Shown: positions 41,855-62,678, counted from the first letter of the stretch. The stretch: 64,000 bases of DNA from an uncultured Gammaproteobacteria bacterium (GCA_964404855.1 CAYOLO010000002.1:131494-195493); one strand, 5' to 3'. Made by a program: numbers and translations. The notes: generated from the sequence alone by a model not told the origin.

Positions 41855-41880
41855 GAGCCCTCCTTTTTAGGGGAGGGCTT
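41855..41880 (-). terminator. family terminator hairpin GCCCTCC-TTTTTAGG-GGAGGGC plus T9 (minus-strand sense)
   Basis: 17 nt downstream of the stop of 41897..42415. Identical hairpins at 42745, 61966 and 62648. Confidence 0.7.
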
Positions 41881-41896
41881 GAGGAAAGGACGAGGA

Positions 41897-42415
41897 CTAC
41901 CACGTTGTGAGGGGTGTTCGCCCCGCAGACGCGGCTTGCTCGAATTGCTTTAACGCAAAGCTTTCGTCCGCTTCGGAATCGAAGAAGACTTTGAATTGCT
42001 GGGTTGGAACGTCGAAGTGAACAACCACAAGGCGCGCTTCGGTTTGGGTAAAGCCGCCAACGGCACCTTCGAGCGCATAGTCGACGACTGATCCCAGATT
42101 GAAGGACGCGTAAAGACAGATTGGCCGACTACCGTGTTTGTTAACGTAGTCGACGGCCGCGCCTAGAGCGTGTATATAAGCCTGCTCTGGCCTAAGGATG
42201 TTGATGTCCTCGTAGCGCATAAGTGGCGTACAGTTCTCGACGAGCGTCAGATCGCCGCGATTACTGAACAGCGTGAGATGACGCATACCTTGCGGCAAGA
42301 TGTCGAGGAGGCTGGGTGCTGGCTGGGTCGCATGTGATCCTGTCTTTTTAAGGAACAGAAAAACTGTCACAACAGCTACGACTACCAGACTGGTTACGAC
42401 AAGCGAGATGAACAA
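41897..42415 (-). CDS. GC-rich membrane-anchored hypothetical protein (172 aa), unit 3
   Basis: N-terminal TM (FISLVVTSLVVVAVVTVFLFL) followed by a soluble domain with no recognisable motif. About 56% GC. Confidence 0.55.
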   Translation of the reverse strand: MFISLVVTSLVVVAVVTVFLFLKKTGSHATQPAPSLLDILPQGMRHLTLFSNRGDLTLVENCTPLMRYEDINILRPEQAYIHALGAAVDYVNKHGSRPICLYASFNLGSVVDYALEGAVGGFTQTEARLVVVHFDVPTQQFKVFFDSEADESFALKQFEQAASAGRTPLTTW

Positions 42416-42483
42416 AGCTTATGGGGCTCCTTTTAGCTAAATGTGCTTCTGAGTGAGTTTTTACACTTACCCAATTGTTGTAA

Positions 42484-42511
42484 TTATATCATATTTTGAG
42501 CCTATAGTAAA
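42484..42511 (-). promoter_or_regulatory. family promoter copy C (diverged -35 TTTACT, 16-17 nt spacer, TATAAT)
   Basis: -10 at + 42484-42489 (attata), with spacer ...ctcaaaatatga similar to the other copies. Confidence 0.4.
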
Positions 42512-42570
42512 GAATCTGGTGAAATCTAATTTTAATATTACACAGTAGGGTTTTCTACTTTGTAGAAACA

Positions 42571-42710
42571 GTTTTTTCAATCCCCTTTCTTGGCACGTTC
42601 AAAATCCCTGCGAGATTTTTCTCTTTCACTTTTTGCTCGCTCTTTTGTCTTACAGACAAAAACCATGCCCACTACGCAAAAAGAGATCCAAGAATGAGAA
42701 TTGAGAGATA
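42571..42710. repeat. conserved ~140-bp intergenic element, copy C
   Basis: Same element. The covarying stem here is ttttgtct/agacaaaa (42643-42661). Confidence 0.7.
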
Positions 42711-42744
42711 TGAATTATGAAAATGAAGTCAAGCAAGAAGAAGC

Positions 42745-42772
42745 CCTCCTTTTTAGGGGAGGGCTATGGGCG
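42745..42772 (-). terminator. family terminator hairpin GCCCTCC-TTTTTAGG-GGAGGGC
   Basis: Downstream of the glpX stop (42798). Confidence 0.7.
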
Positions 42773-42797
42773 GATTGGTTTGTGAAGCGAACCGAGA

Positions 42798-43733
42798 CTA
42801 GTTGTCACGATCCCAATTGTGTTCGGTCTCGATCCGGCGAATAGTGCCGGTGAGGCCTCGCATCACGACTGAGTGACTGACCGTCACTCCGTGCGCCAGA
42901 GGCTGGATGCCTTGAAGCATGGTACCGTTGGTCACGCCTGTGGCCGCGAAATATGTATCCTGACTGGACACGAGATCGTCAAGGTTCATGACCCTGTTGG
43001 GGTCAATCCCCTTTTCGAGAATGGCACGCCGTTCTTCATCGCGAGAGATGAATGGCCGGCACTGCATGTCGCCGCGGAGAGCGATGATACCGCAGGCAGC
43101 CGTGACAGCCTCAGGCGACCCACCGCTGCCAAGCAGCATGTGAGCACCTGTGCCTGGCATGCAGGCAACCAGAGCGCCGGCAATGTCGCCGTCGCCAATG
43201 AGGTTGATGCGTGCACCCGCTGCCCGAACAGCTTTGATGATTTCGTTGTTGCGATCCCTTTTGAGGATGGTGACAACGACGCTGTTGACGGGAATGTCGA
43301 GAGCCTTGGCAACCTGCTCGATGTTCCAAGCGACCGGAGCGGTGATGTCGATTTTGCCCTTGGCTTCCTTGCCCACGACAATCTTGTCGAGGTAAAAGAA
43401 GTCACGGACGTCGATCATGGTCCCGCCTGGTGCGGCGGCGATAACAGCGATGGAACCTTCTCGCCCTTCGGAGAGAATGGTCGTCCCGTCGACTGGGTCG
43501 ACAGCAACATCCATCTTGGGTCCATTGCCGTTGCCGACCACTTGGCCGTTGAACAGCATCGGAGCTTCGTCTTTTTCGCCTTCGCCGATTCTGACGATAC
43601 CGTCCATGTCGACCGTGGCAAGCATGGCGTTCATGGCGTCGACGGCGGCTTGGTCGGCACCAATCTTGTCACCAAGACCGAACCAACGGACGGCACCGAG
43701 AGCGGCAGCTTCGGAAACCCGAATGAGCTCCAT
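42798..43733 (-). CDS. glpX: class II fructose-1,6-bisphosphatase (GlpX-type FBPase/SBPase)
   Basis: MELIRVSEAAALGAVRWFGLGDK...DGIVRIGEGEKDEAPML...VDPVDGTT...IGDGDIAGAL...LLGSGGSPEAV is colinear with GlpX. The ORF-track start at 43916 lies upstream of this unit's own promoter, so the start was set to the conserved MELIRV Met. About 58% GC. Confidence 0.8.
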   Translation of the reverse strand: MELIRVSEAAALGAVRWFGLGDKIGADQAAVDAMNAMLATVDMDGIVRIGEGEKDEAPMLFNGQVVGNGNGPKMDVAVDPVDGTTILSEGREGSIAVIAAAPGGTMIDVRDFFYLDKIVVGKEAKGKIDITAPVAWNIEQVAKALDIPVNSVVVTILKRDRNNEIIKAVRAAGARINLIGDGDIAGALVACMPGTGAHMLLGSGGSPEAVTAACGIIALRGDMQCRPFISRDEERRAILEKGIDPNRVMNLDDLVSSQDTYFAATGVTNGTMLQGIQPLAHGVTVSHSVVMRGLTGTIRRIETEHNWDRDN

Positions 43734-43887
43734 CCCGATATTGCGATCGGGCGTGGGAGTGTAGTTCCTGACCTTGAGTGGTCCGGAAGGGATGACGAGG
43801 GTTTGTGCCGATGTAATGGGTTTGGTTCTCCTTCTCCAAATAAATGAGCTGTAACGGACGTCCGTAACGGTTGTCCAAAACGGCGAA

Positions 43888-43916
43888 ATCTTACCACTTT
43901 TGAAGCTGTATGTCAA
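43888..43916 (-). promoter_or_regulatory. family promoter copy B (tagtaTTTGACA-17-TAAGAT)
   Basis: -35 at + 43911-43916 (tgtcaa), spacer tacagcttcaaaagtgg, -10 at 43888-43893. Confidence 0.5.
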
Positions 43917-43973
43917 ATACTACGGGCCTAAATAATAGTTATTTTGGAAAATATTAGTTTTTAATTACAAATT

Positions 43974-44113
43974 GTTTTCAATCCACTTTCTTGGCACACC
44001 AAAAATCCCAGCGTGATTTTTGTTTTTCACTTTTTGTTTGTTCTTTTGCTTGTTAAGCAAAAACCATGCCCACTCACAAAAAGAGATCCAAGAAAGTAAA
44101 TTGAGGGATAGTG
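43974..44113. repeat. conserved ~140-bp intergenic element, copy B
   Basis: Same element. The covarying stem here is tttgctt/aagcaaa (44044-44062). Confidence 0.7.
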
Positions 44114-44151
44114 AAAAAACAGATAGGAAGTTTGGAGTATTAAAGACAAGA

Positions 44152-44180
44152 AAAAGCCCTCGGGGTGAGCCGAGGGCTGG
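44152..44180 (-). terminator. family terminator variant GCCCTCGG-GGTGAGC-CGAGGGC plus T-run
   Basis: Immediately downstream of the stop at 44204. Same outer stem as the main family. Confidence 0.6.
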
Positions 44181-44203
44181 GGGGTGAACTTGGGAGGTGT
44201 TGG

Positions 44204-44716
44204 CTAGGCCAACGCGAGACTGGCGCGACGCATCAGCGAGACGACGTCGCCGCCTTGGGGCATGCCTTCTTCGAAGCGCTCGATGGCGTCGCAGTAGGGT
44301 TTGTCGGCGAGATACTCGTCGGTATGGATCCGCATCAAAAACGGAACGATTTCCGTGATGGCGGAGCTGTTGCCGTGGACTACTTCGCCTCCCCGCTTGT
44401 GGCGGAAGAAGAACGAATAACCAATGGTCAGCTCGGTTTCGAGCAGCCACTCGTCGGTCTCGAGGTCGGAAACGTGGAGCCTGCCGGTCTTGACGGACTC
44501 ATTACGGTTAATGAGCACGCCGTTCTCGGTCAGGAGATACATGTTGCCGCTTCGGCTGGTAAGCAGAACGGCGTTGAACTTGTCCCCACCGAGGAGCATT
44601 GCACCTTCACTGAACATGTCGCTCAGCCTGAAGACCCTGTCCGAATTGGCTCGGTCGATCCGATGGGCAAGGTGGTTACCCTTAACCTGGACCAGAATTG
44701 CTTCGGCGCTAGCCAA
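44204..44716 (-). CDS. GC-rich hypothetical protein (170 aa), unit 1
   Basis: TTG start with AGAGG RBS. No recognisable motif. The overlapping + strand ORF 44165..44746 is judged an antisense artefact. Confidence 0.5.
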   Translation of the reverse strand: MASAEAILVQVKGNHLAHRIDRANSDRVFRLSDMFSEGAMLLGGDKFNAVLLTSRSGNMYLLTENGVLINRNESVKTGRLHVSDLETDEWLLETELTIGYSFFFRHKRGGEVVHGNSSAITEIVPFLMRIHTDEYLADKPYCDAIERFEEGMPQGGDVVSLMRRASLALA

Positions 44717-44751
44717 AGTGTCTACACCTCTTTCTTAATGTTCTAAGGTAT

Positions 44752-44780
44752 ATTATACCATATTATAGGCTTATTTTCAA
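44752..44780 (-). promoter_or_regulatory. sigma70-type promoter for unit 1 (TTGAAA-17-TATAAT, minus strand)
   Basis: + strand tttcaa at 44775-44780 and attata at 44752-44757. Confidence 0.45.
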
Positions 44781-44802
44781 TTCTGATTAAATGAAAATGG
44801 TC

Positions 44803-44836
44803 ACAAAAAACCCGCCTCACAGGACGGGTCTTTTGT
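44803..44836 (-). terminator. rho-independent terminator of tuf
   Basis: Minus-strand gacccgtcc-tgtgag-gcgggtttttt. Confidence 0.6.
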
Positions 44837-44958
44837 TTAAGTTGTTGCTTATATTAAGCGATTACTTAGTTATAGATGCTCGCCAAAATTCGTTTAATTT
44901 CTGCCGCTGGCAAAATTGCACTCAGTTTTGGCTACGCTCTTTCACAAAGCTACTTGCC

Positions 44959-46140
44959 TTAGGCAATTACCTTTGTGATGACTCCAGCACCTACGGTGTG
45001 GCCACCTTCGCGGATAGCAAAACGTAGACCTTCTTCCATAGCGACAGGTACGATGAGTTTGATTGTCATCTTGACTGTGTCACCAGGCATAACCATTTCG
45101 GTTCCTTCTGGAAGTTTAGCTTCACCAGTTACGTCAGTTGTACGGACGTAGAACTGTGGGCGGTATCCAGAGAAGAATGGAGTGTGGCGTCCACCTTCTT
45201 CTTTGGTGAGGATATAAACCTCAGCTTCGAATTCGGTGTGAGGGGTGGAAGTTCCTGGTTTAGTAAGAACTTGTCCACGCTCGACGTCGTCTTTTTCAAC
45301 TCCACGAAGTAGAACTCCAACGTTGTCTCCAGCTTGACCTTCGTCTAGCTGTTTGTTGAACATTTCGACTCCTGTGACGGTAGATTTCTTGATCGGGTTG
45401 ATACCAACGATTTCGATTTCTTCACCGACTTTGACAACTCCTCTTTCGATACGTCCTGTAACAACAGTTCCACGACCTTTAATCGAGAAAACGTCTTCGA
45501 CAGGCATCAAAAATGGCTTGTCAGTGTCGCGTTCAGGTGTTGGAACGAATTCGTCAACAGCTTTAAGCAATTCTTCGATACTCTTAACCCCTTCAGCGTC
45601 TCCTTCGAGAGCTTTGAGTGCAGAACCGCGAATAATCGGGGTTGTGTCTCCAGGGTATTGATACTTGGTCAAAAGTTCACGAATTTCCATCTCGACTAGA
45701 TCAAGAAGTTCTGGATCTTGAACCATATCAACCTTGTTCATAAAAACAACGATTGAAGGTACACCAACTTGACGTGCTAGCAAAATATGCTCGCGAGTCT
45801 GTGGCATTGGACCATCTGGAGCGGAAACAACAAGAATAGCACCGTCCATTTGAGCGGCACCGGTAATCATGTTCTTGATGTAGTCAGCGTGACCAGGGGC
45901 ATCAATGTGTGCGTAGTGTCTAGCTTCTGTCTCGTACTCAACGTGAGCGATAGAAATAGTAATACCACGCTGTCTTTCTTCAGGTGCCTTGTCGATTTGA
46001 TCGAAGGCTTTGAAGTTTGCCATTCCTTTGTCGGATTGGACTTTTGTAATAGCAGCAGTTGTAGTTGTTTTACCGTGGTCGACGTGACCGATGGTACCAA
46101 CGTTAACGTGCGGCTTGGTTCTTTCGAATTTGTCAGCCAT
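44959..46140 (-). CDS. tuf: elongation factor Tu
   Basis: [25 protein letters not shown]-motifs. 393 aa. Confidence 0.95.
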
Positions 46141-46270
46141 TTTTGGTTTTTCTCCTTAAATTAAACTTATATAAATAAGCCAAAAAAGCTCCTTTGCAAT
46201 TGAAGCTTTTTTTGGGCTTGTGTATTATTCAAATTACTACACGGTTTGTCAATATATAAAGTCTCTATGG

Positions 46271-47077
46271 CTAGTTGGCTAAACATTTGCCGGCGGAGTA
46301 GATTCGGGAGAAAATATTGTTCGATATCAAAAAATGATCCAATTTTGCCATAAGCAGGTTTTGCTTAGCCTCGTCTTGAGATTTGCAGCTTAGAATAAAT
46401 TGTTCAACAAAATAAACAATCGTGAGCAGTTTGGTGAGATTGGAATTAATGAATACCCCATTTTGGGTTAGTTTTTGAACAATCAGATCAAAATCCAGTG
46501 AAAAACCATCCGCAAAAAGTAGTGAATTACAAAACTCATATTCGAGAGGTCCAAATTGGAAGTGTTCAAAATCAATTATTTTAACCCCTGAATCGGTAAT
46601 GATCAGGTTGCCAATATGTAGATCTCGGTGCAGTGGTTGTGAAGGGAAATTGTCCCAGTCTACTCTGTTTATATAATCGATAATTTGGGTTATTTTCCCC
46701 GTTCGATCAGACCCGAGTTTTTGCCGTAAGACACGGATATTTGACTGAAATTGGCTCTTATTTGCTTGCAGATAATTGATCCATTCTGTGTTACCGGATA
46801 ATTGAGTCTTGTTGAGCTTAGTAATAATATCTGAAAGCTGGTCGCATATTAGCGGTTTGTTTATCTGGTCATTACTCTTTAGTTTGTCAAAAATCGTCAA
46901 ACGACCCAGACGAAAAACAATTTTCGGCGCACTACCCGGACTATTGAAATAGAAAGTATTGATTCCTAATTCCTCTCTTCTGGCTAGTTCGGCGGATGTG
47001 TAGAACTTGAGAATGAATTTGTCCATTACATCAATCACGTTGTGTACTCCCCTTCCGGTTTGGATTAATTTGATCAT
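46271..47077 (-). CDS. APH/ChoK-fold phosphotransferase (aminoglycoside-phosphotransferase-like kinase family)
   Basis: Brenner motif HRDLHIGNLII and IDFE(H) metal-binding motif. 268 aa. Confidence 0.65.
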   Translation of the reverse strand: MIKLIQTGRGVHNVIDVMDKFILKFYTSAELARREELGINTFYFNSPGSAPKIVFRLGRLTIFDKLKSNDQINKPLICDQLSDIITKLNKTQLSGNTEWINYLQANKSQFQSNIRVLRQKLGSDRTGKITQIIDYINRVDWDNFPSQPLHRDLHIGNLIITDSGVKIIDFEHFQFGPLEYEFCNSLLFADGFSLDFDLIVQKLTQNGVFINSNLTKLLTIVYFVEQFILSCKSQDEAKQNLLMAKLDHFLISNNIFSRIYSAGKCLAN

Positions 47078-47084
47078 TGATGTG

Positions 47085-47804
47085 TTAAATTTTTAAGTCG
47101 AAGAGTACACTTGGGAATTTTGGATTGAGTGTAAAAGCTTCGGCATATTCATTCTCTTTGCTGCGCCTAAGATGATAACCGCGGACACACGAAAGTGACT
47201 TCTCGAATACAGTTGATTTTGAATCAGCCTGAGACTCGTAAATACCGAATAGCTGCATCTTCTGATCAATATAATCAGTGATATCGACCAAAACCTGCGG
47301 CACTATCGGCAACATACCTTCACCATACAGAACGATAGGTGTGCGGTGAGGATCACCTAGTTCTGGTTTGACTCCGGTAGCGGACCAAAAGGAAGCCTCT
47401 TCGACGACATGAGCCGCTTCTCGGTGGTCAGAGTGGTAGTCAAGCGGATTCATAGTAAAAATCACTTCCGGCCTAACTTGTCTAATTATTTTGACTACTT
47501 TGAACATTAGTTTTTTGGAAAACTGAAGATTGAGGTCTTCTTCGGCAAGTAGGAATTTTTGTTTTAGACCCAAAAATTCAGTCGCTTTGTCAAATTCTCC
47601 CTCGCGCAAGTTAATAACCGTATTTTTCGCACTCTTTGATCCGTTTCGTCTATCTCTGCCCTCTTGAGAGTTAGTCAGCAGTATTTCGTAGGCATTGAAT
47701 CCTTGATTTTGGAGCTTGAATACACTGCCGGCACAGGTAATGTGATCGTCGGCGTGAGCTGAAACGATAAGTATATTTTTGGTACTAATGGGTTTTTTGG
47801 ACAT
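47085..47804 (-). CDS. PIG-L/LmbE-family N-acetylglucosaminyl deacetylase
   Basis: ILIVSAHADDHITCAGS zinc-binding motif, plus HSDHREA. Confidence 0.75.
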   Translation of the reverse strand: MSKKPISTKNILIVSAHADDHITCAGSVFKLQNQGFNAYEILLTNSQEGRDRRNGSKSAKNTVINLREGEFDKATEFLGLKQKFLLAEEDLNLQFSKKLMFKVVKIIRQVRPEVIFTMNPLDYHSDHREAAHVVEEASFWSATGVKPELGDPHRTPIVLYGEGMLPIVPQVLVDITDYIDQKMQLFGIYESQADSKSTVFEKSLSCVRGYHLRRSKENEYAEAFTLNPKFPSVLFDLKI

Positions 47805-47815
47805 GTTCCTCCTTT

Positions 47816-49822: not shown

Positions 49823-49844
49823 ATTTTGGCTATAAAAAAACCTC

Positions 49845-49915
49845 CCGGTGTGGGAGGTTGTTTGGCTTTTATTTAAAGCTGTGGCTCTTTAGATAAGAGA
49901 CCTCCCACATGAAGA
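49845..49915 (-). promoter_or_regulatory. terminator/antiterminator-like leader upstream of the 668-aa gene
   Basis: Minus-strand 5'-tgtgggagg...(40 nt)...cctcccacacc-gggagg-ttttttt. The central cctcccaca can pair either with upstream tgtgggagg or with downstream gggagg, which is the terminator followed by T7. Confidence 0.4.
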
Positions 49916-50033
49916 AATGCGCAAAAAGCGCATCCAGGTCTGGTGGAGATAAATACAGTTAGAATTCAAATTTTGTACAGATAGAATATCCATAGTTGAA
50001 GTAGATAATACGATTGGGATAATGATTTGTCAA

Positions 50034-50354
50034 TTAATTACTAAAGTCTGTTTGAGTGTCTTGACCATCTTGAATTAATTCCTGATATTTTTCTTGATTT
50101 TTCATTCTGGCCTCTTCAGCTCTTTCCAGCTGTGCCTGGGGATTAACAGAAACGAAAATGGCGGCGGCAAATATCAAAAACCAAATCAGAACAAAAAAGG
50201 CAAAAATTCCGGTAACGAGGAATTTGACCCATTTGGGCCAAGCGGTCCAAATCCACATCAGTACAAAACCTGCAGGAAAGGCAAAAACCAATAACAAAAC
50301 TGTTACAAGTGTTTTGGTGTCACTGGACATTCCTTCAGACTTAGTGTTTACCAT
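50034..50354 (-). CDS. small two-TM membrane protein, hypothetical
   Basis: TVLLLVFAFPAGFVLMWIW and FLVTGIFAFFVLIWFLIFAAAIFV, with a Gln/Glu-rich C-terminus. Confidence 0.45.
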   Translation of the reverse strand: MVNTKSEGMSSDTKTLVTVLLLVFAFPAGFVLMWIWTAWPKWVKFLVTGIFAFFVLIWFLIFAAAIFVSVNPQAQLERAEEARMKNQEKYQELIQDGQDTQTDFSN

Positions 50355-50396
50355 ATGTTTTCATTGTGACTATTTTGGATGATTTTTGCAAAAAAA

Positions 50397-50420
50397 GCCC
50401 CCGGGGGTTAGCCGAGGGCG
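50397..50420 (-). terminator. family terminator variant GCCCCCGG-GGGTTAG-CCGAGGGC
   Basis: Downstream of the stop at 50448. Same arm sequence as the variant at 44152. Confidence 0.5.
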
Positions 50421-50447: not shown

Positions 50448-50993
50448 CTAGTTGCCCAGCCAGCTGCCGTGTGTGCCGATGATCTGCGTACCGTCGCGGA
50501 ACACGACCATGTCGTGGCTCGCACTAAAAATCCGCTTGCGCTGATCCTTGACTTCCAGCTTGAGGACCCAGCCGTTGAAGGACTGGGCCTGGACGTAGAC
50601 TCGGACCTGGCCGATCGGATTGGTCCTGATGTACTTCAGCCGATTGTTGATGATCTTGGTCGCGTCGAAGTTGACGACTTGGGCGCTGGCCAGGGTCATT
50701 TTTTCGAGGCTTGCAAGAAGAGTCTCCTCTGCAACGTTGGCATTGTCTACCTTAGCCATCTCCTCGCGGAATTTGGCAATGGCAAGCTCAAGCGGTTGGT
50801 CTTGGAGGTCAATGGCGAGGGTGGAGAAGATCGTCAGGACGACTGTCCTGTCTGCGTACGCGGCTTCAACAAGCCGAGTCAGCGTCCTCACACCGTGAGT
50901 ACGTCCGACGACCTCAAACATATACGGAAGCTGAAGTCCGTATGGAATGAGATCTTCGACCGAAGGGTATATTGTCCTTTTTTTGCGGGGCAA
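50448..50993 (-). CDS. GC-rich hypothetical protein (181 aa) directly downstream of fusA
   Basis: About 57% GC. TTG start with AGGAAG RBS. No recognisable motif. The + strand ORFs 50469..51029 and 50620..50898 are antisense artefacts. Confidence 0.5.
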   Translation of the reverse strand: MPRKKRTIYPSVEDLIPYGLQLPYMFEVVGRTHGVRTLTRLVEAAYADRTVVLTIFSTLAIDLQDQPLELAIAKFREEMAKVDNANVAEETLLASLEKMTLASAQVVNFDATKIINNRLKYIRTNPIGQVRVYVQAQSFNGWVLKLEVKDQRKRIFSASHDMVVFRDGTQIIGTHGSWLGN

Positions 50994-51028: not shown

Positions 51029-51057
51029 ATTATAACCTATAATAATGTAAATTGCAA
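51029..51057 (-). promoter_or_regulatory. sigma70-type promoter for the 50448..50993 unit (TTGCAA-17-TATAAT)
   Basis: + strand attata at 51029-51034 and ttgcaa at 51052-51057. Sits between the fusA stop and the GC-rich ORF. Confidence 0.45.
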
Positions 51058-54170: not shown

Positions 54171-57100
54171 TTAAGCTGCGTCAACCTCACCTTCTGCGGG
54201 AATGTTGTCGACGATAGCGCGATCGACTGAAGTTGGAATCAGGCGTCCAATAATTACGTTTTCCTTCATACCTAATAATGGATCAACTTTACCTTCAGAA
54301 GCAGCCTGTGTTAGGACATTGGTAGTTTCCTGGAACGAAGCGGCTGACAAGAAGCTTTCTGTGTAAAGAGAAGCTCTGGTGATACCTAAAATTACCAACT
54401 CTGCGGTAGCAGGCTCACCGCCTTCGGCGATTGTTTTGGCATTTTCGTACTCATATACATGCTTAGCAATGTGTTCGCCAGGCAGGAATTTGGTGTCACC
54501 TGAGGAGGTAATTTTGACTTTCTCACTCATCTTGCGAATGATGACTTCGAAGTGCTTGTCGTCGATAGGTACACCTTGGGCCTCATAAACACTCTGCGCT
54601 TCGTCGGCGATGTATTTTTGAGCTTCACGCAAACCTTTGACTCTTAGAATTTCTTTAACGTCAAGATGACCTTTTGAAAGCGGTTCTCCGGCTTTTATAG
54701 TGTCGCCGGTAGTGATATTAAGATCTTCAGTCAAAGGCAAGAGGTACTGTTTTTCGGTGACGGGTTTTTCGGAACCTTTGATCGTGATAACAAAACCCTC
54801 AGCAGTCTCATCAACTGTGACCTTACCGGTTATTTCAGCAATCGGCGCGGAAACTTTGGGTGTTCGGGCCTCAAGCAGTTCTTCAACACGCGGTAGACCT
54901 TGGGTAATATCGGTTCCAACAATACCTCCGGTGTGGAAGGTTCTCATTGTCAGCTGTGTTCCCGGCTCACCAATACTTTGAGCGGCGATGACACCAACCG
55001 GCGTACCGATCTCAACTAGTTTGCGGGTTGAAGTGTCCCGACCGTAACAAAGTGCACAAAGTCCAATCGTAGCTTCACAAGTCAACGGCGAGCGGACGAT
55101 AATTTCATCAGCTGAGTCGGCGACTTTTTTGGCGGTAGTGAGATCGAGAAGGTCTCCGGCTTTTGCCACACCTTTGACGTCTTTAGCAAGAACCATACCA
55201 ATAATTCGATTCTCAAAAGCTGCACGGCGAGCCGGATCGGTTTTGAAAACAGTTATACCTTCCTTGGTACCACAGTCAAGCTGACGAATGATTACGTCGT
55301 GAGAAACATCAACCAAACGTCGAGTTAGATATCCTGACTCAGCTGTACGCAGAGCACGGTCTGCCAGACCTTTTCTGGCACCACGACTCGAGGTGAAGTA
55401 CTCAAAGACACTTAACCCCTGGCGGAAATTACTCTTGGTTGGAAGAGGAACAATCTTACCGGAAGGGTCTTGAACCAAACCTTTCATACCCGAAAGCTGT
55501 TTAATTTGGTCTGAAGATGCACGACTTCCACCTGAATCAGAAATCATTTTGACCGAGTTGTCGTTTTTGATCGCCGCCCAGGTCTTCTGGTACACGACAT
55601 CGGTTGTTTCTGTCCAGATGTCGTTGGTTAGGCGACGCTTTTCTGCTTCGGTGATCAGACCGTCGTCGAATTTCTTTTCGATTTCGTCAACGCGCTTATC
55701 TGCTTCAGCGATAATTTCGTCCTTTTCGGGCACGATCTCATTATCAAAAACAGAGACAGACAGACCGGAGACCGTAGCGAACCTGAATCCGATATTTTTG
55801 ACGTTGTCGATTAGTTTAAGCAGTTCTTCTTCTGTCAGGTTCTCAAGATGAGCACTGATTGTGGATTTAATTGTCGAGTTGCGGAAAGTCTCGTTAAGGA
55901 ATGGAATTTTGTCTGGCAACATGCGGTTGAAATTGATTCGACCGACAGTAGTCTCTACAACCTTGTCCTCCATTCTAACTTTGATTGGCTGACGCATGCC
56001 GATTTTGCCGTTCTGCCAAGCAAAAATCGCCTCTTCAGAGTCAACAAAAATCGTGTCAACCGGCTGAGCATCTTCATCGATCGAAGTGATGTAGTAAGCT
56101 CCAAGTGCCATTTCCTTGTTGGGGATCGTGATTGGAGTACCATCAGCTGGACGAAGAATATTCTGTGAAGCCATCATCAAACGACGCGCTTCAGCTTGTG
56201 CGTCGCTAGATAGCGGAACGTGGACTGCCATTTGGTCTCCGTCAAAGTCAGCGTTAAATCCTGCACAGATACAAGGGTGAATTCTAATTGCGTCACCTTC
56301 GATTAGTACCGGATAGAAGGCTTGAATACCAAGCTTGTGAAGAGTTGGAGCACGGTTAATCAAAACCGGGTGTTCACGGGTAATTTCTTCAAGAATATCC
56401 CAAACTTCGGGCGGTCTTTTCTCAAGTACGTGTTTTGCGCTCTTAACGTTAGGAGCCAGCCCAAGACCGATGAGGTCGCGAAGAACGAAAGGTTTGAACA
56501 TTTCAAGAGCCATTTCCTTGGGGATACCCACCTGGTCAAGATCGAGTTCCGGACCAACAACGATAACCGATCGTCCAGAGTAGTCAACACGCTTACCTAG
56601 AAGATTCTGACGGAATCTTCCCTGCTTACCGCGTAACATGTCAGAGAGGGAACGTAGCTCAGCCTGAGTTGTGCGAGTAGTGGTTGAACGGGAATTAGTA
56701 TCAATGAGAGCGTCAACTGCTTCCTGCAACATACGCTTTTCGTTGCGAAGAATGATTTCCGGTGCACCGAGGTCAATTAGTTTTTTGAGACGATTATTGC
56801 GGTTGATCACGCGACGGTATAGATCGTTAAGGTCACTTGTTGCAAAACGTCCACCGGATAGCTGGACCATCGGACGAAGATCGGGCGGAAGAACCGGAAG
56901 GACAGTAAGAACCATCCAAGTCGGGTCGATATCTGCCTTGCGCATACCTTCGGCAACTCTTAAACGCTTAGCGGCTTTGATATGTTTGATACCGGAGACT
57001 TCAGTAAGCTCTTTTCTTAGATCAGTAACAAGTGCGTCAAGATCGATGTTTTCAAGAATAGTCTTAATGGCTTCTGAACCCATTCCGACTTTGAGGAATG

Positions 57101-57869
57101 ATGCGACACCGAGATAATCGAGTGTTAAGTAGTCTTCCTCGGAAAGCAGGTTGAGGGGCTTGACTGAGGACATTAATTTCTCGAGCTTTTTGTACTTTTC
57201 TTCGATTTTGGCGAGTTCAATGCTGTGTGCATCACGAAGCAAAGCAATTTTGTGACGAGAAGCTAATTCCATCTCTTCGACTTTGAGGTCGAGATTGCTT
57301 TTTTCTTTAGTTTTTTTGACTTCTTTTACCTCTGCTTCGGATTCTTTTTTGACTGCACCGATTTGTTCTTCAAGAACCTTGACAGCCGAAGCGATTTCTT
57401 TTTCCTGAAGAGTTTTGAGTTTTTCTATGTCTTCTTTGCGCTTCTCAGGATCAAGGGAAATAACAATATAACTAGCAAAATAAATGACTGCATCAAGACT
57501 GCGCGGAGAAATATCCAGTAGTAAGCCGAGTTTGCTGGGCGCACCACGGAAGAACCAACTGTGAACGACAGGAGCTGAAAGAGACAAGTGCCCCATTCTT
57601 TCGCGGCGGACGCGTGCCTGAGTTACTTCAACGCCACATTTTTCACAAATAATACCGCGGAATCTGATCCTCTTGTATTTACCACAGTAACATTCCCAGT
57701 CTTTGACTGGTCCAAAAATACGCTCATCAAAAAGACCATCCTTCTCTGGTTTGAGGGTACGATAGTTGATGGTTTCCGGTTTGGTAATCTCTCCATGAGA
57801 CCATTCTTTGATATTTTCCGGTGAAGCTAGAGTGATTTTTAGTGCTTTGAAATCAAGCAGGGCTTTCAT
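54171..57869 (-). CDS. rpoC: DNA-directed RNA polymerase subunit beta'
   Basis: Zn finger CYCGKYKRIRFRGIICEKCGVEV and NADFDGDQMAVH catalytic motif. Confidence 0.95.
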   Translation of the reverse strand: MKALLDFKALKITLASPENIKEWSHGEITKPETINYRTLKPEKDGLFDERIFGPVKDWECYCGKYKRIRFRGIICEKCGVEVTQARVRRERMGHLSLSAPVVHSWFFRGAPSKLGLLLDISPRSLDAVIYFASYIVISLDPEKRKEDIEKLKTLQEKEIASAVKVLEEQIGAVKKESEAEVKEVKKTKEKSNLDLKVEEMELASRHKIALLRDAHSIELAKIEEKYKKLEKLMSSVKPLNLLSEEDYLTLDYLGVASFLKVGMGSEAIKTILENIDLDALVTDLRKELTEVSGIKHIKAAKRLRVAEGMRKADIDPTWMVLTVLPVLPPDLRPMVQLSGGRFATSDLNDLYRRVINRNNRLKKLIDLGAPEIILRNEKRMLQEAVDALIDTNSRSTTTRTTQAELRSLSDMLRGKQGRFRQNLLGKRVDYSGRSVIVVGPELDLDQVGIPKEMALEMFKPFVLRDLIGLGLAPNVKSAKHVLEKRPPEVWDILEEITREHPVLINRAPTLHKLGIQAFYPVLIEGDAIRIHPCICAGFNADFDGDQMAVHVPLSSDAQAEARRLMMASQNILRPADGTPITIPNKEMALGAYYITSIDEDAQPVDTIFVDSEEAIFAWQNGKIGMRQPIKVRMEDKVVETTVGRINFNRMLPDKIPFLNETFRNSTIKSTISAHLENLTEEELLKLIDNVKNIGFRFATVSGLSVSVFDNEIVPEKDEIIAEADKRVDEIEKKFDDGLITEAEKRRLTNDIWTETTDVVYQKTWAAIKNDNSVKMISDSGGSRASSDQIKQLSGMKGLVQDPSGKIVPLPTKSNFRQGLSVFEYFTSSRGARKGLADRALRTAESGYLTRRLVDVSHDVIIRQLDCGTKEGITVFKTDPARRAAFENRIIGMVLAKDVKGVAKAGDLLDLTTAKKVADSADEIIVRSPLTCEATIGLCALCYGRDTSTRKLVEIGTPVGVIAAQSIGEPGTQLTMRTFHTGGIVGTDITQGLPRVEELLEARTPKVSAPIAEITGKVTVDETAEGFVITIKGSEKPVTEKQYLLPLTEDLNITTGDTIKAGEPLSKGHLDVKEILRVKGLREAQKYIADEAQSVYEAQGVPIDDKHFEVIIRKMSEKVKITSSGDTKFLPGEHIAKHVYEYENAKTIAEGGEPATAELVILGITRASLYTESFLSAASFQETTNVLTQAASEGKVDPLLGMKENVIIGRLIPTSVDRAIVDNIPAEGEVDAA

Positions 57870-60800
57870 TATTTGTCTTCTCCTTCTTTTTCATCCTCGT
57901 CCGAGGAAGTACTTTCTTCTAGTTCGGTGAGTTCAGCTTCTGCCTCGGCGTCTTCAGCCGATTCGTCTTCAGTAATTTCGTTTTCTGCTTCGACACTCTT
58001 GATGTCAGGAACGATTTCGGAAAGAATTTCTTCTTCAGCGACATCGGCTTTGGCTTCGACTTTTTCTTCGGGTTTGCCGTCTTCGGATTTGTCTGACTCG
58101 TCAATGATCGTAGCACCTAAAGCTTCGACATTGAGTGAAAGCGATTGAAGTTCTTTGACAAGGACTTTGAATGATTCCGGAATTTGAGGAGTTGGAATAT
58201 CGGTTCCTTTGACTATAGCTTCGAATGCTTTTGGTCGGCCGACAATGTCGTCGGACTTAATCGTTAACATTTCCTGAAGGATGTGGGCGGCACCGTAAGC
58301 TTCGAGAGCCCAAACCTCCATTTCTCCAAGACGCTGTCCACCCATTTGAGCTTTACCACCGAGTGGCTGCTGAGTAATGAGTGAGTAGGGTCCGGTAGAA
58401 CGTGCGTGAGTCTTGTCCTCAACCATGTGGATAAGTTTGAGAATATAACTAGTTCCGACAACGATCGGACGATCGAATGCTTCACCCGTGCGGCCGTCGT
58501 AGAGAGTAGTTTTACCGTTGACCGGCAGACCGGCTTTGCCAAACTGTTCGACAATGACATCCTCGTCAACCTCTTCGAATACAGGAAGGGCTACTTTGTA
58601 ACCGAGTTTTTCGGCACTAACTCCAAGGTGGGCCTCCATCAATTGGCCAAGGTTCATACGAGCAAGAACAGACAAAGGACTAATGATGATATCAACAGGC
58701 TTGCCTTCTGCTGTGTGTGGCATATCAGCTTCGGGAACAATCTTTGAGATGACACCTTTGTTTCCGTGGCGACCACAAAGTTTGTCTCCAACAACGACTT
58801 TGCGCATTTGAGCAATTTTGACGGTAATCTTTTTGATCGCACCAGGCTCCAATTCGTCACCGGCGGCACGTGATAAGACTTTGATTCCGATAACGGTACC
58901 GCGCTCACCGTGAGGAACTCTCAAGGAAGTATCTCTGACCTCGCGGGCTTTTTCACCAAAAATTGCGCGTAGCAGACGCTCCTCAGCAGTAAGCTCGGTC
59001 TCACCTTTTGGAGCAATTTTTCCAACAAGAATATCGTTAGGTCCGACTTCTGCACCGATAACAATAACTCCGTCTTCGTCGAGGTTGGCTAGATCTTCTT
59101 CAGAAACGTTTGGGATATCGCGTGTGGTCTCTTCTGGTCCGAGCTTGGTGTCAACAACAACTGCGGTGTGTTCTTCGATGTGAACAGAGGTCAAAAGATC
59201 ACTCTTAACGAGGCGGTCGGAAATAACAATAGCGTCTTCGTACCCCAAACCGTCGTAACTCATGTAAGCAATGGTTAGGTTCTGTCCGAGTGCTAATTCT
59301 CCGCCCTCTGAAGCTGGACCATCAACCAGAACATCGCCTGCTTTGAAGCTGTCGCCGGTATAAACAAATGGTCTCTGTGAGTAACAAGTAGATTGCTGCG
59401 AACGAACGAATTTTTTGATCGGGTAGGTAACCAGCTCTTTTTCGCCAGCGTAGCGAACTACGACTTTGTTGGCGTCAGCGAATTCGACTTTACCGTCTTT
59501 TTCGGCGGTAATAACCCGACCCATTGTTACCGAAACTGGATTTTCCATACCTGTACCAATAATCGGTGAGTGAGGGATAAGAAGCGGTACTGCCTGACAC
59601 TGCATGTGTGTACCCATCAAAGCACGGTTAGCATCGTCGTGGCTAAGGAATGGAATAAGCGAAGCTGATGTACCAATGATCTGGCGAGGAATAATATCGA
59701 TATAGTCTACGTCGGTAGCTAGTGCGGTAGTGAATTCACCCATGTGGCGAACCGGAACACGGTTTTCGACGATTGTACCGTCTTTTGCTAGCTCTATTTC
59801 TGAATGAGTGATGATGGCTTCATCCTCGTCGTCAGCAGTGATATAAACGATTTCGTCGGTTACGACAGCCTTGTCGCCTTTTTTGACCACTTTGCGATAA
59901 GGTGCTTCGATAAAACCTAATTCGTTGATACGGGCATAAAGAGCAAGATAGGTAACCAGACCAATGTTCGGACCTTCAGGACTTCTGACTGGGCAAATAC
60001 GTGAATACTGCGAGGAGTTGATATCGCGAATCGAGAAAGCTGCTCTTTCACGGGTAATACCGCCCGTACCCATAACTGACAGTCTGCGCATTGTGTCAAC
60101 TTCGGCCAGAGGATTAGTCTGATCAAGAATTGTTGCCAACTGCGAAGTGCGGAAGAATTCGTTAATTGCAGACATAACAGGTCGGGCATTAACTAACGTA
60201 GCTGGTGTTGGTGGAATTTCCGGATTAGCTGTGGTCATTCTTTCGCGAATAACGCGCTCAAGACGAAGAATACCGACACGGAAGGCGTTCTGCTGAGTCA
60301 GTTCACCAACTGAGCGTACGCGGCGGTTACCAAGATGGTCAATGTCATCAACGCGGCCTTTGTTAAAACTCAGACCAATTAGGTAAGCAATTGAAGCAAG
60401 AAGGTCGGTTTTGTTGAGAATAAGAGGATTAGAATCTTCTGAATCAGCGGATTTGACTAGCGGTTTGATGTCTTTGAGCTTGCGGTCCATTTTGTAACGG
60501 CCGACTTCGGCGAGGTTGTAACGACGATCATTGAAGAACATTCCTTCAACCATAGCTCTGGCTGTATCGAGAACCAGAGGATCGCCGGGTCGCATACGGC
60601 GGTATATTTCCAGCAGAGCTTCGTCGGAGTTGGTAGTTGTGTCTTTTGCCAGGGTATTGTGAATAAAAGCCATCTCTTCTTCAGGTAAGAATTTGAAAGC
60701 TTCGATTATCTGTTCATCACTGCTGAGTCCGATCGCGCGCAAAAAGGTAGTAACCGGGAATTTGCGGCGGCGGTCGATTTTGACATTGATCGTGTCGGTA

Positions 60801-61318
60801 CGACTAAGTGAAAATTCGAGCCAGGAACCTCTAAGCGGACGAACCTCGGCTGTGTAGAGGATTTTTCCGGTACCGGGATCCATAGCTGCGGAGTAATAAA
60901 CACCAGGAGCTCGAACTAGCTGATGAACAATTGCACGCTCAACACCATTGACAATGAAAGTACCGCGTTCAAGCATTAGAGGGATATCACAGAGGAATAC
61001 TTCCTGATTGATTGTCTCTTCGGTTTGTTTGTTTGTGAGTTTGGCCTGAACTTTGAGTGGTGCGTCGTAGGTAAGGCCCTTTTCTACTGCTTCTTCCGGG
61101 GTAATGGCCGGCTTGCCAAGTGTTAATTTGGAGAATTCCAGTCGATAGTTCTTGCCGGTAACATCCTCGATAGGGCTGATCTCGCGGATAACTTCTTCTA
61201 GACCCGTGTCTAGGAATTTCTGGAATGATGTCTTGTGGATTTTGAGCAGATCAAGATTAGGAAGGTTGGGTGTCTGACGACCCCAATAAAGACGTGTTTT
61301 GTAATTTGTTTCAGCCAT
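57869..61318 (-). CDS. rpoB: DNA-directed RNA polymerase subunit beta (acidic C-terminal tail)
   Basis: Colinear with bacterial RpoB. Ends in ...SSDEDEKEGEDK. Its stop overlaps the rpoC start. Confidence 0.95.
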   Translation of the reverse strand: MAETNYKTRLYWGRQTPNLPNLDLLKIHKTSFQKFLDTGLEEVIREISPIEDVTGKNYRLEFSKLTLGKPAITPEEAVEKGLTYDAPLKVQAKLTNKQTEETINQEVFLCDIPLMLERGTFIVNGVERAIVHQLVRAPGVYYSAAMDPGTGKILYTAEVRPLRGSWLEFSLSRTDTINVKIDRRRKFPVTTFLRAIGLSSDEQIIEAFKFLPEEEMAFIHNTLAKDTTTNSDEALLEIYRRMRPGDPLVLDTARAMVEGMFFNDRRYNLAEVGRYKMDRKLKDIKPLVKSADSEDSNPLILNKTDLLASIAYLIGLSFNKGRVDDIDHLGNRRVRSVGELTQQNAFRVGILRLERVIRERMTTANPEIPPTPATLVNARPVMSAINEFFRTSQLATILDQTNPLAEVDTMRRLSVMGTGGITRERAAFSIRDINSSQYSRICPVRSPEGPNIGLVTYLALYARINELGFIEAPYRKVVKKGDKAVVTDEIVYITADDEDEAIITHSEIELAKDGTIVENRVPVRHMGEFTTALATDVDYIDIIPRQIIGTSASLIPFLSHDDANRALMGTHMQCQAVPLLIPHSPIIGTGMENPVSVTMGRVITAEKDGKVEFADANKVVVRYAGEKELVTYPIKKFVRSQQSTCYSQRPFVYTGDSFKAGDVLVDGPASEGGELALGQNLTIAYMSYDGLGYEDAIVISDRLVKSDLLTSVHIEEHTAVVVDTKLGPEETTRDIPNVSEEDLANLDEDGVIVIGAEVGPNDILVGKIAPKGETELTAEERLLRAIFGEKAREVRDTSLRVPHGERGTVIGIKVLSRAAGDELEPGAIKKITVKIAQMRKVVVGDKLCGRHGNKGVISKIVPEADMPHTAEGKPVDIIISPLSVLARMNLGQLMEAHLGVSAEKLGYKVALPVFEEVDEDVIVEQFGKAGLPVNGKTTLYDGRTGEAFDRPIVVGTSYILKLIHMVEDKTHARSTGPYSLITQQPLGGKAQMGGQRLGEMEVWALEAYGAAHILQEMLTIKSDDIVGRPKAFEAIVKGTDIPTPQIPESFKVLVKELQSLSLNVEALGATIIDESDKSEDGKPEEKVEAKADVAEEEILSEIVPDIKSVEAENEITEDESAEDAEAEAELTELEESTSSDEDEKEGEDK

Positions 61319-61635
61319 ACAAAGTAACTTTTTTAGTATAAAAAGATTCAGGCAGCACGAACAATATTTATATGTATAAAGGATTTCCTAGTTACCCGAG
61401 CCCTATTGCGAGGCGCAACCAAATAGAGTTGCTTTTGATGCTCAAATCTTTCAGACAAAAGACCACAAAACCACAGGAATTACTCCCCTGCTGTCAAGTG
61501 GTTAAGGGCAAATATATACGTATTTGCTGAATGTGTCAATAGTCTTTTTTATAGTTTCTTTTTAAAAAACAATTATTATATTTCCCTCTTCACTTTTTGA
61601 TGACTGGCAGTTTGTGTATTACCGGCCACTCATCA

Positions 61636-61707
61636 AGCTAGATTTTCAGATTTAGAAATCACTTGTTGTGTTGATTTGTATTTTATTTTTAAGGAATATC
61701 TGAAAAT
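61636..61707. repeat. 12-bp perfect inverted repeat (agattttcagat / atctgaaaatct) separated by 48 nt in the rpoB leader region
   Basis: Exact reverse-complement segments at 61636-61647 and 61696-61707. Confidence 0.5.
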
Positions 61708-61766
61708 CTAAAGCCGTTCAGAGGAAAATGTGATCAGTTTATGAGGAGCTTATTTTCTCCTTTTTC

Positions 61767-61928
61767 TTATGGCTTTTTTAGTTTTTTTAAGAAAAAGCCC
61801 CGTGGGTTGAGCACGGGGCGGGGTGTGGATTGGTCAGCCTGCCAAGGCAACAAAGTAGAGCACAGAATACGACCGCGCGCCCTATCGGGTTTATCGGACA
61901 TGTTCCAGAACGCCCTTGAACAGGTCAT
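61767..61928 (-). other. GC-rich ~150-nt transcription unit: candidate sRNA or 53-aa ORF (MTCSRAFWNMSDKPDRARG...), its 3' end spanning the 61796-61830 terminator
   Basis: Minus-strand -10 TATAAT at + 61948-61953, GC-rich segment 61830-61945, then hairpin gccccgtg-ctcaaccc-acggggc plus TTTTTCTT. The ORF reads through the terminator hairpin. Confidence 0.3.
61796..61830 (-). terminator. rho-independent terminator (gccccgtg/cacggggc stem plus T-run)
   Basis: Hairpin followed by tttttctt on the minus strand. Confidence 0.5.
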
Positions 61929-61965
61929 CCACACCAGGTAATTATATTACCGCTGGTCAAATAAT

Positions 61966-61993
61966 AAAAAACCCTCCTTTTTAGGGGAGGGCT
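61966..61993 (-). terminator. family terminator hairpin (A)CCCTCC-TTTTTAGG-GGAGGG(T) plus T-run
   Basis: 18 nt downstream of the stop at 62011. Confidence 0.65.
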
Positions 61994-62010
61994 AAGAGGG
62001 TCGGAAGTTC

Positions 62011-62475
62011 CTACAGAGGGAGCGCCACCTTGCGTTCCCGCCGGTGTCGGACTCGGGTAAGAGCCGCGGCGATACCGTTGCGGATCGCCTGGAGCGGGGC
62101 GCGATGGCCGACCAGCTGCATCTTATCGTCGATGGTTTCCATGACCAGCTCGGCCTGCTCGGGGTCGAGCATGAAGCCGTTTTTGGGGTACCGCGGTTTG
62201 GGGGTAAAAACTCCCGGACCGCCGTACTCGAGCAGCTGAACTTCGACTCCGGCAGCTTCGTAGCCGTCGAGGGCGCCGACGTAGAGGTCGAGCGGTCCAT
62301 CGCAGTGCAATGCGATAACCTGGTCTCCTGTCATGGCAACCGCGTCCTCGAATGCGCGACGGTAAGCCTCCTCGTACGCTTGCTCCAGGTGGGTATCAGA
62401 CCGCCTGGCAAAGAGGTATCTGTCGACATTGTCGGGACTGAACGTCCGACTATGTACGTCGGGCAGAGGCGGCAT
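62011..62475 (-). CDS. GC-rich hypothetical protein (154 aa)
   Basis: About 62% GC. The ORF-track start (62634) lies upstream of this unit's own promoter (62532-62560), so the start was moved to the first ATG downstream of the TSS (MPPLPDV). No recognisable motif. Confidence 0.5.
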   Translation of the reverse strand: MPPLPDVHSRTFSPDNVDRYLFARRSDTHLEQAYEEAYRRAFEDAVAMTGDQVIALHCDGPLDLYVGALDGYEAAGVEVQLLEYGGPGVFTPKPRYPKNGFMLDPEQAELVMETIDDKMQLVGHRAPLQAIRNGIAAALTRVRHRRERKVALPL

Positions 62476-62531
62476 CACACAGATGATTCTCAAGTTTCTG
62501 TTTGAACTCCTTTTGGTAATGAACTGAGGCG

Positions 62532-62560
62532 AATTATACTTGTTTTTAGATAAAAAATCA
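62532..62560 (-). promoter_or_regulatory. family promoter copy D (ctagtaTTTGATT-17-TATAAT)
   Basis: + strand attata at 62532-62537 and aatcaa at 62555-62560. Confidence 0.5.
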
Positions 62561-62647
62561 AATACTAGAGGATAGTCTGACACATATTTAATTATTTTTT
62601 GAAAGGGATTTGTAGACTCTAGCTTTTTTGCCAAACCAGCAAAATAA

Positions 62648-62678
62648 AAGCCCTCCTTTTTAGGGGAGGGCTAGGGCG
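62648..62678 (-). terminator. family terminator hairpin GCCCTCC-TTTTTAGG-GGAGGGC
   Basis: 13 nt downstream of the stop of the 56-aa ORF. Confidence 0.65.

Follow-up and report, generated by a model that had tools for sequence, protein, structure and literature searches.

A predicted promoter and terminator hairpin in common frame GC-rich, mostly orphan units beside core genes of an uncultured Curtissbacteria-like bacterium

The stretch of DNA described here (hereafter, the window) comprises 64,000 nucleotides of a genome deposited as an uncultured Gammaproteobacteria bacterium (GCA_964404855.1 CAYOLO010000002.1:131494-195493). Its minus strand carries at least eight units, most of which consist of a single open reading frame (ORF) and end in a hairpin of one of two types. 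These hairpins, and the promoter shared at the opposite end of the units, are the subject of this analysis. The units lie in the order tuf-[D, C, B, A]-rpsJ, fusA-[E] and [G, F, H]-rpoB, and are co-directional with the core genes. Their G+C content at third codon positions (GC3) ranges from 0.60 to 0.76, against 0.26-0.49 in tuf, fusA, rpoB, rpoC and the ribosomal-protein genes; at the first and second codon positions, units and host genes are alike. The units are as follows:

41052..41543, minus strand: unit A, orphan ORF of 163 amino acids (aa); GC3 0.66; three clusters in 5.8 billion proteins
41897..42415, minus strand: unit B, 172-aa orphan ORF whose N-terminus is hydrophobic; GC3 0.60
42798..43733, minus strand: unit C, GlpX, class II fructose-1,6-bisphosphatase; GC3 0.67; Pfam E = 7e-118
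44204..44716, minus strand: unit D, 170-aa orphan ORF; GC3 0.76
50448..50993, minus strand: unit E, 181-aa orphan ORF, flanked by fusA and a 106-aa gene; GC3 0.71
62011..62493, minus strand: unit F, ~160-aa orphan ORF upstream of rpoB
62691..62867, minus strand: unit G, 58-aa hydrophobic ORF; GC3 0.71
61820..61940, minus strand: unit H, probable non-coding RNA of ~120 nt that has a -10 box and a terminator of its own

Read as a 207-aa ORF, unit F has a GC3 of 0.63; the value is 0.73 for the 160-aa version called in a related locus, L039, where the gene is identical (related loci are referred to by such handles where they need to be told apart). In L039 a further unit (124 aa, GC3 0.86, with a type-1 hairpin) lies just past the point where the window ends. 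There are at least nine units in ~75 kb.

The unit ORFs are mutually unrelated, and only GlpX matched a described family when the eight window units were searched against Pfam and ten unit proteins against PHROGs and NCBIfam; the same searches returned no homology to immunity families. Unit F falls into eight clusters among the 5.8 billion proteins, and the clusters of A and F all come from this lineage. A profile of unit F searched against 1.84 billion representatives recovered its own cluster only, and a short motif match to FG-GAP repeats in a giant protein was judged spurious. AlphaFold2 models of A and F (mean predicted local distance difference test scores of 39.6 and 54.5, respectively) were too poor for a fold search. 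Among orthologous unit ORFs, codon positions 1 and 2 are far better conserved than position 3, which marks them as real protein-coding genes. Most of the units are clade-restricted orphans. Of the window ORFs examined, none was identified as encoding a recombinase, a transposase or a phage protein.

The 22-mer GCCCTCCTTTTTAGGGGAGGGC occurs exactly at 41857-41878, 42743-42764 and 62650-62671, and with one mismatch (ACCCTCC...) at 61971-61992; the chance expectation is 0.00 (100 shuffles). Two variant hairpins are located at 44155-44178 (GCCCTCGGCTCACCCCGAGGGC) and 50397-50419 (GCCCCCGGGGGTTAGCCGAGGGC on the plus strand). The initial annotation, which recognized six units, had placed a hairpin family at four sites and variants at 44152 and 50397; all of these are present, with the coordinates of the four sites corrected by 2-5 nt, and an additional related hairpin at 61797-61819, missing from that annotation, joins them. 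The predicted terminators of the units are:

41856..41879, minus strand: type-1 terminator hairpin, unit B; AGCCCUCC-CCUAAAAA-GGAGGGCU, then a U-run; -15.6 kcal/mol
42742..42765, minus strand: type-1 terminator hairpin, unit C (glpX)
61971..61992, minus strand: type-1 terminator hairpin, unit F; the mismatch costs the stem one pair
62649..62672, minus strand: type-1 terminator hairpin, unit G
44155..44178, minus strand: type-2-like terminator hairpin, unit D; AGCCCUCGG-CUCACC-CCGAGGGCU
50397..50419, minus strand: type-2-like terminator hairpin, unit E; GCCCUCGG-CUAACCC-CCGGGGGC
61797..61819, minus strand: type-2 terminator hairpin, small-RNA candidate H; GCCCCGUG-CUCAACC-CACGGGGC
40994..41026, minus strand: terminator hairpin of the GC-rich unit A, of unrelated sequence

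On the minus strand, the hairpin copies have a G+C-rich stem of 7-9 bp and a loop of 6-8 nt followed by a U-run, with free energies of -15.6 to -17.7 kcal/mol. In units B-G they begin a short gap after the stop codon, as the initial annotation had it, within a range of 17-32 nt in place of the 13-35 nt given there. This anatomy (a GC-rich stem-loop with a U-run, co-oriented with and just 3' of a stop codon) is that of a Rho-independent terminator, and ordinary Rho-independent terminators are what the hairpins are predicted to be. The type-1 stem is invariant in more than 50 copies from several genomes and its loop varies slightly; in the second type, the loop CUMAACC is conserved and the stems covary. 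The arms of the type-1 hairpin resemble an anti-Shine-Dalgarno (CCCUCC) and a Shine-Dalgarno sequence (AAAGGAGGG).

The host is a small uncultured bacterium of the candidate phyla radiation (CPR), Curtissbacteria-like, and Candidatus Curtissbacteria is the name that one source gives to a cluster member. In a scan of 185,579 species, represented by one genome each, the exact 22-mer was found at 23 loci. At 20 of these, the hairpin separates GC-rich DNA, on the side of the ORF, from AT-rich DNA on the opposite side, and the 20 loci are spread over eight metagenome-assembled genomes (MAGs). The core-gene check covered five MAGs, which are labeled Gammaproteobacteria or Saccharibacteria (the other three are labeled proteobacterium, Pseudomonadales and Paceibacterota). 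Since their RpoB and EF-G are 92-94% and 93-98% identical to those of the window, respectively, these five are close relatives of its host, and the public taxonomic labels are unreliable. The other three loci (L004, Pseudomonadota; L014, Bacteroidetes; L019, Leptospira) are apparently unrelated, judging by record title, and lack GC-rich flanks. No GC-rich genome among those scanned carries the hairpin. Apart from L004, L014 and L019, the hairpin is confined to one narrow clade. In IMG/VR, the hairpin occurs on one viral contig (L035, positions 8319-8340; 11 kb, GC 0.44), as an exact type-1 copy with a U-run 3' of a capsid-like gene, and this contig may represent a phage of the clade; the scaffold promoter motif described below is absent from IMG/VR.

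Within the window and its relatives, use of the hairpin follows gene composition. Where a type-1 hairpin follows an ORF, that ORF has a GC3 of at least 0.55 in 38 of 45 cases. Among ORFs of at least 120 aa, median GC3 is 0.63 with the hairpin (n = 27) and 0.38 without it (n = 156; p = 4e-13), and the hairpin is missing from all 126 ORFs whose GC3 is below 0.45. All clade loci share one orientation, with the GC-rich ORF upstream of the hairpin and the U-run downstream. The possibility that this is the ubiquitous terminator of the genome irrespective of gene composition, raised in the initial annotation, does not hold for the window and relatives. Host genes use other hairpins, as had been proposed: this is borne out for tuf (44811-44830), and the 106-aa gene likewise ends in a different one (49839-49859). 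The latter (AACCUCCC...GGGAGGUU) is unrelated in sequence, yet has the same Shine-Dalgarno/anti-Shine-Dalgarno-like construction. Since unit A and several units in relatives end in other hairpins, however, the hairpin is specific to the GC-rich units without being universal among them. That independent genes share one terminator was read correctly: the ORFs are unrelated, and what they share is part of a scaffold, not the general terminator.

The other part of this scaffold lies 5' of the ORFs and consists of a conserved promoter (TAGTATTTGACA-N17-TATAAT) and an AT-rich leader ending in AAGGAG, a strong Shine-Dalgarno sequence. The promoters of A, C, F and G have TAGTATTTGA(C/T)-N-TATAAT in common and are also similar in the spacer; those of B, D and E are looser. 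The predicted promoters are:

41640..41679, minus strand: scaffold promoter, unit A; TAGTATTTGACA-N17-TATAAA
42483..42511, minus strand: promoter, unit B; TTTACT-17-TATAAT, with TG
43888..43916, minus strand: scaffold promoter, unit C
44752..44780, minus strand: promoter, unit D; TTGAAA-17-TATAAT, with TG
51029..51057, minus strand: promoter, unit E; TTGCAA-17-TATAAT
62532..62571, minus strand: scaffold promoter, unit F; subtype common to F and G
62912..62951, minus strand: scaffold promoter, unit G

Similarity between units is limited to the 22-24 nt of the hairpin and ~36-45 nt of the promoter, and the flanks differ. Because it stops at these module edges, the hairpin can be regarded as one end of a two-part scaffold around unrelated ORFs. 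Such a standard "expression scaffold" on GC-rich units is apparently undescribed so far. The unit promoters are alike beyond their -35 and -10 boxes (CC-Y-R-TAGTATTTGACAT-NN-AGCYTCAAAA; window, L005, L007, L010, L033 and L039), and a small hairpin, GTTTCT-N4-6-AGAAAC, often precedes them; this extension and hairpin could be an operator or a regulon signature.

The units are old. A distant relative (L033/L034) has the syntenic array glpX-B'-(142 aa)-A'-rpsJ, and its four-fold degenerate sites are near saturation relative to the window (43-55% identity in ribosomal-protein genes, 47-52% in glpX and A), and the glpX hairpin differs by one loop base. In L006, where four-fold identity in glpX is 0.39, the hairpin stem is unchanged; taken together, the same hairpin is found on orthologous glpX units at four-fold identities of 39-47%. 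Promoter identity is 75-89% among orthologous and 81-86% among paralogous units. Because the scaffold is conserved far beyond neutral sites, the shared sequence is not a trace of recent duplication, and the recent duplication of a scaffold proposed in the initial annotation is not supported: similarity ends at the module edges, the ORFs are unrelated, and glpX has kept its hairpin at near-saturated divergence.

The templated process that was proposed alongside it fares better, in the form of gene conversion between scaffold modules. The window copy of unit E has a type-2-like hairpin (GCCCTCGG-CTAACCC-CCGGGGGC), and its L011 and L024 orthologues have type-1 hairpins; unit D, whose hairpin in the window is much like that of E, has a type-1 hairpin in L024, although the two D ORFs retain 83% four-fold identity; and the hairpin of RNA H is of type 2 in the window and of type 1 in the L005 orthologue. 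Rare loop variants occur twice per genome, on neighboring, non-orthologous hairpins (CGTAAAAA in L007, CTTAAATAA in L020 and CCTTAAAA in L010). Similarly, the window F promoter is 83% identical to that of its neighbor G and 61-64% identical to orthologous F promoters. Because of these swaps of hairpin type, the loop variants within genomes and the G-like F promoter, putative gene conversion between modules is supported.

The arrays themselves vary in part. Upstream of rpoB, the window has the cassettes G-F-H, L010 has G-F-cluster 6, L007 has cluster 6-F, and L005 has H-F with another small ORF after them. Unit D is missing from L006, in which tuf and glpX are adjacent, and on this comparison D behaves like an insertion between them. 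The units glpX, A and E hold a constant position in all relatives examined. Contigs with identical EF-Tu often stop within ~350 nt past tuf. The window tuf (44959-46140) and the adjoining array show a mosaic relatedness to L024: four-fold identity is 0.28-0.53 from rpoC to the APH gene, in the remainder of the str-operon region, then 0.92 in tuf, 0.83 in D, 0.75 in glpX and 0.57 in B. This mosaic indicates that diverged lineages recently exchanged the tuf-array segment. Within the GC-rich array upstream of rpoB in L005, there is also an AT-rich gene pair (~5940-6530), which, from a reading of the translations, may be a toxin-antitoxin pair (DUF433-like and PIN/DUF5615-like). The glpX gene of unit C has a conserved ATT at ~43817 (minus strand), 7-9 nt past a Shine-Dalgarno sequence, with equivalents in L024, L033 and L006. 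This is probably its start codon, earlier than the called one; it would add ~28 aa to the N-terminus of GlpX, including a conserved RNYTPT-x-DRNIG, where gene callers use an internal ATG.

Several structured repeats accompany the units, in the window and in relatives:

41690..41838, minus strand: 140-nt structured intergenic repeat, between units B and A
42560..42710, minus strand: 140-nt structured intergenic repeat, between units C and B
43960..44110, minus strand: 140-nt structured intergenic repeat, between units D and C
L005 200-400, 990-1130, 4370-4550, 6590-6680 and 7060-7260, and L039 ~7385-7480: second repeat family
L024 11990-12100, L033 1-60, and beside type-1 hairpins in L001, L007, L016 and L020: third repeat

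The 140-nt repeat, which lies past the upstream terminator and ahead of the next promoter, also occurs in L002, L006, L009, L010 (two copies), L015, L024 and L027. Its fold is a three-way junction whose outer stem has 16 bp, with compensatory changes in 14 of 35 pairs across nine aligned copies, and its G-U pairs favor the gene-sense strand. All nine aligned copies have the ends CTCAATT...AATTGAAAA. The repeat is optional, being absent from the L033 array and deleted in L024; because a 93%-identical copy in L002 stands behind an unrelated AT-rich gene, it does not travel with a cassette. The second repeat family (TTCACTGTGAACGCC...GGTGCCCGAC...CAAAGGGC..GAAGTGAACAGTGAAAT) is also structured and intergenic, and is found upstream of unit promoters in relatives. 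The third stands directly 3' of some type-1 hairpins and consists of a small hairpin, then GCAGGCTTGTAGCTC ... GGGGGACTCA ... GAGAACCTATAAA; it follows unit D in L024 and is absent there in the window. Unit H, probably a small non-coding RNA, recurs in five related loci (L039 10554-10671, L010 6977-7089, L005 4128-4244, L020 1379-1493 and L002 4912-5041), bracketed by the closing stem GGUGUGGAU/AUCCACACC and with little covariation. Neither the hairpins nor the 140-nt repeats nor RNA H match an Rfam family (window at the gathering threshold, 40.8-45 kb at E <= 1, and six related loci).

The codon usage of the units reflects a general shift in GC3. Translational selection was rejected as its cause: the units share the C-ending preference of highly expressed host genes only partially (r = 0.54), and they also favor G-ending codons, which those host genes avoid. 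In glpX, GC3 is 0.64-0.69 in four lineages, and the nearest genes outside the clade are those of Chloroflexota/Dehalococcoidia, at ~60% identity. Synonymous changes polarized by parsimony, a procedure biased by saturated outgroups, number 31 from GC to AT and 14 from AT to GC, which lies between the yardsticks of equilibrium (1:1) and neutral decay (~3.8:1); with this ratio and the outgroup bias, a claim of active GC3 maintenance was withdrawn. Ancient acquisition from a very GC-rich source, followed by slow, parallel amelioration, is possible.

Taken together, we consider it probable that the hairpins are the 3' module of a clade-specific scaffold, and that their identity is kept by selection and gene conversion and not by recent duplication. 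Such a scaffold would begin with a sigma-70 promoter that is close to consensus and carries a conserved extension (CC-Y-R-TAGTATTTGACAT...TATAAT); the AT-rich leader and its strong Shine-Dalgarno sequence would come next, then one GC3-rich ORF, and last the hairpin with its U-run. Each would form an autonomous, moron-like transcription unit, placed co-directionally between the core genes tuf/rpsJ, fusA and rpoB. The near-identity of hairpins and promoters would then be maintained jointly by purifying selection for a particular hairpin sequence and by gene conversion among the units. Several points weigh against this interpretation. Promoter and terminator function are read from sequence alone. 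The type-1 stem shows no compensatory changes, and conservation of its sequence, as opposed to its pairing, is unneeded for termination and hints at an additional, sequence-specific role. The loci of relatives were fetched with the canonical 22-mer, so that it appears more frequent than it is and canonical loops are overrepresented, and the evidence for gene conversion amounts to a handful of cases from loci selected in this way. Finally, the scaffold model leaves unexplained the sharp GC/AT boundary at start and stop codons.

A more elaborate possibility, which we regard as rather unlikely, is that the promoter-leader and terminator (perhaps with the repeats) act as a landing pad that captures, expresses and reshuffles GC-rich orphan ORFs by a templated mechanism, with a separate force holding GC3 high. 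The mechanism could be gene conversion or a recombinase or reverse transcriptase, in an analogue of the integron without IntI or attC, and biased gene conversion at recombining sites, or selection, would keep the GC3 of the ORFs far above that of the remaining genome. Closer to known mobile platforms, an integron-like or rAID-like system would move the cassettes by a recombinase, with the 140-nt repeats or hairpins as attC-like sites and the arrays resembling clusters of attC sites lacking integrases (CALINs). Co-directional arrays of single-gene, mostly orphan cassettes of host-unlike composition agree with this, as do the structured repeats between cassettes with their covarying 16-bp stem and 14 compensatory pairs, the cassette order that varies between genomes, and the AT-rich gene pair inside the L005 array; the rAID-1 system likewise has a skewed GC content and repetitive intergenic sequences (bioRxiv 10.1101/471110). 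However, no recombinase was seen among the window ORFs scanned, in gene tables, or among the 25 most frequent of 82 neighbor Pfam families, every cassette has its own promoter, and the positions of glpX, A and E are fixed. The repeat ends also differ from RYYYAAC...GTTRRRY, and attC identity of the 140-nt repeat is further weakened by its optionality and by the L002 copy behind an unrelated gene. We therefore hold a platform of this kind to be unlikely.

Recent horizontal transfer from a GC-rich donor, terminators included, or recent duplication of one imported unit could account for a composition far from that of the host, for the Chloroflexota/Dehalococcoidia affinity of glpX and for the amelioration-like excess of GC-to-AT changes. 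The hairpin is, however, never found in a GC-rich genome and, besides L004, L014 and L019, occurs only in an AT-rich clade; the AT-rich promoter, leader and terminator are peculiar to the clade; the units retain their synteny at a synonymous divergence close to saturation; and A and F have no homologues outside the clade in the protein sets searched, all of which makes a recent origin very unlikely. The hairpin could instead be a selfish palindrome, such as a repetitive extragenic palindrome (REP/REPIN) or a miniature inverted-repeat transposable element, or a pair of DNA uptake sequences, with termination incidental: there are many near-identical copies with unrelated flanks, the stem is conserved beyond pairing, comM is present in the window, and a viral contig carries one copy 3' of a capsid-like gene. 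Yet every clade copy has the orientation of a terminator for the ORF upstream and is followed by a U-run, copies are limited to GC-rich units and not found in intergenic DNA at large, there are no inverted doublets, and no RAYT-type transposase occurs among the 25 most frequent of the 82 neighbor families. The uptake idea in particular was rejected, with all seven copies of the arm GCCCTCC in 64 kb lying inside hairpins and none single, and we regard a selfish or uptake origin as highly improbable. There is a somewhat better, still small, chance that the hairpin has a sequence-specific role beyond termination, either as the binding site of a clade-specific protein or as a Shine-Dalgarno/anti-Shine-Dalgarno mimic (CCCUCC, with AAAGGAGGG formed by the 3' arm plus loop) that stabilizes or co-regulates the transcripts of a regulon with the promoter in common as well. 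The invariant type-1 stem with its slightly varying loops, the promoter positions conserved outside the -35 and -10 boxes, and the conserved loop of the second hairpin type speak for such a role; orthologous units nevertheless tolerate replacement of type 1 by type 2, and gene conversion by itself could suffice to hold the stems identical.

The genomes of CPR bacteria are tiny, and little is understood of the accessory genes in them. In the present case, mostly orphan genes of distinct composition share a single standard promoter and terminator and adjoin the genome's most conserved genes, and it is the scaffold that is of interest; the hairpin alone would be an ordinary terminator. If the scaffold is truly a device for capture or exchange, it would represent a new route of gene flux in CPR bacteria, and the neighboring tuf, rpsJ, fusA and rpoB would provide ready homology arms for transfer between lineages. 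If it marks a regulon only, promoter and hairpin would still offer a sequence handle for finding this class of genes in metagenomes, and a strong promoter/terminator pair for emerging CPR genetics.

With respect to known systems, the hairpins are like Rho-independent terminators in stem, loop, U-run and position after the stop codon. Such terminators usually have gene-specific sequences, whereas here one 22-mer recurs on many genes, only of one compositional class, and across genomes. Inverted pairs of the Neisseria DNA uptake sequence and the Haemophilus uptake signal sequence double as terminators and give unrelated genes identical stems; uptake sequences are abundant, however, and also occur singly within genes, while the arm found here is restricted to hairpins. 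Unlike REP/REPIN elements, the hairpins keep a single orientation relative to the upstream gene and do not form doublets. A phage moron is a single ORF with its own promoter and terminator and a deviant composition, located between two genes (PMC4378225). The units resemble morons in their single ORF, their sigma-70-type promoter and intrinsic terminator (at the level of sequence) and their deviant composition, as well as in the location of unit D between genes that are adjacent in L006 and in the variable cassette content upstream of rpoB. They differ in lying between core operons and not in a phage or prophage (0 of 10 unit proteins match PHROGs), in having one promoter type and one terminator type throughout, and in being old and syntenic. 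Sedentary chromosomal integrons and CALINs share with the arrays the co-directional orphan cassettes, deviant composition, and ~140-nt repeats that conserve pairing over sequence; the arrays differ in that no IntI was found in the ORFs scanned, in the absence of R''/R' boxes, in their optional repeats, and in the promoter and terminator of each cassette. A literature search on integrons and cassettes in Patescibacteria found nothing relevant. The rAID-1 arrays of Bacteroidales are similar in their small co-directional genes, skewed GC content and repetitive intergenic sequences, but have a 5' XerD-like recombinase and a GC content below that of the host (bioRxiv 10.1101/471110), whereas no recombinase was seen beside the arrays examined here and their GC content is above that of the host. 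The scaffold is nearest to phage morons in architecture and to integron and rAID arrays in organization, and by the defining criteria of each it belongs to neither.

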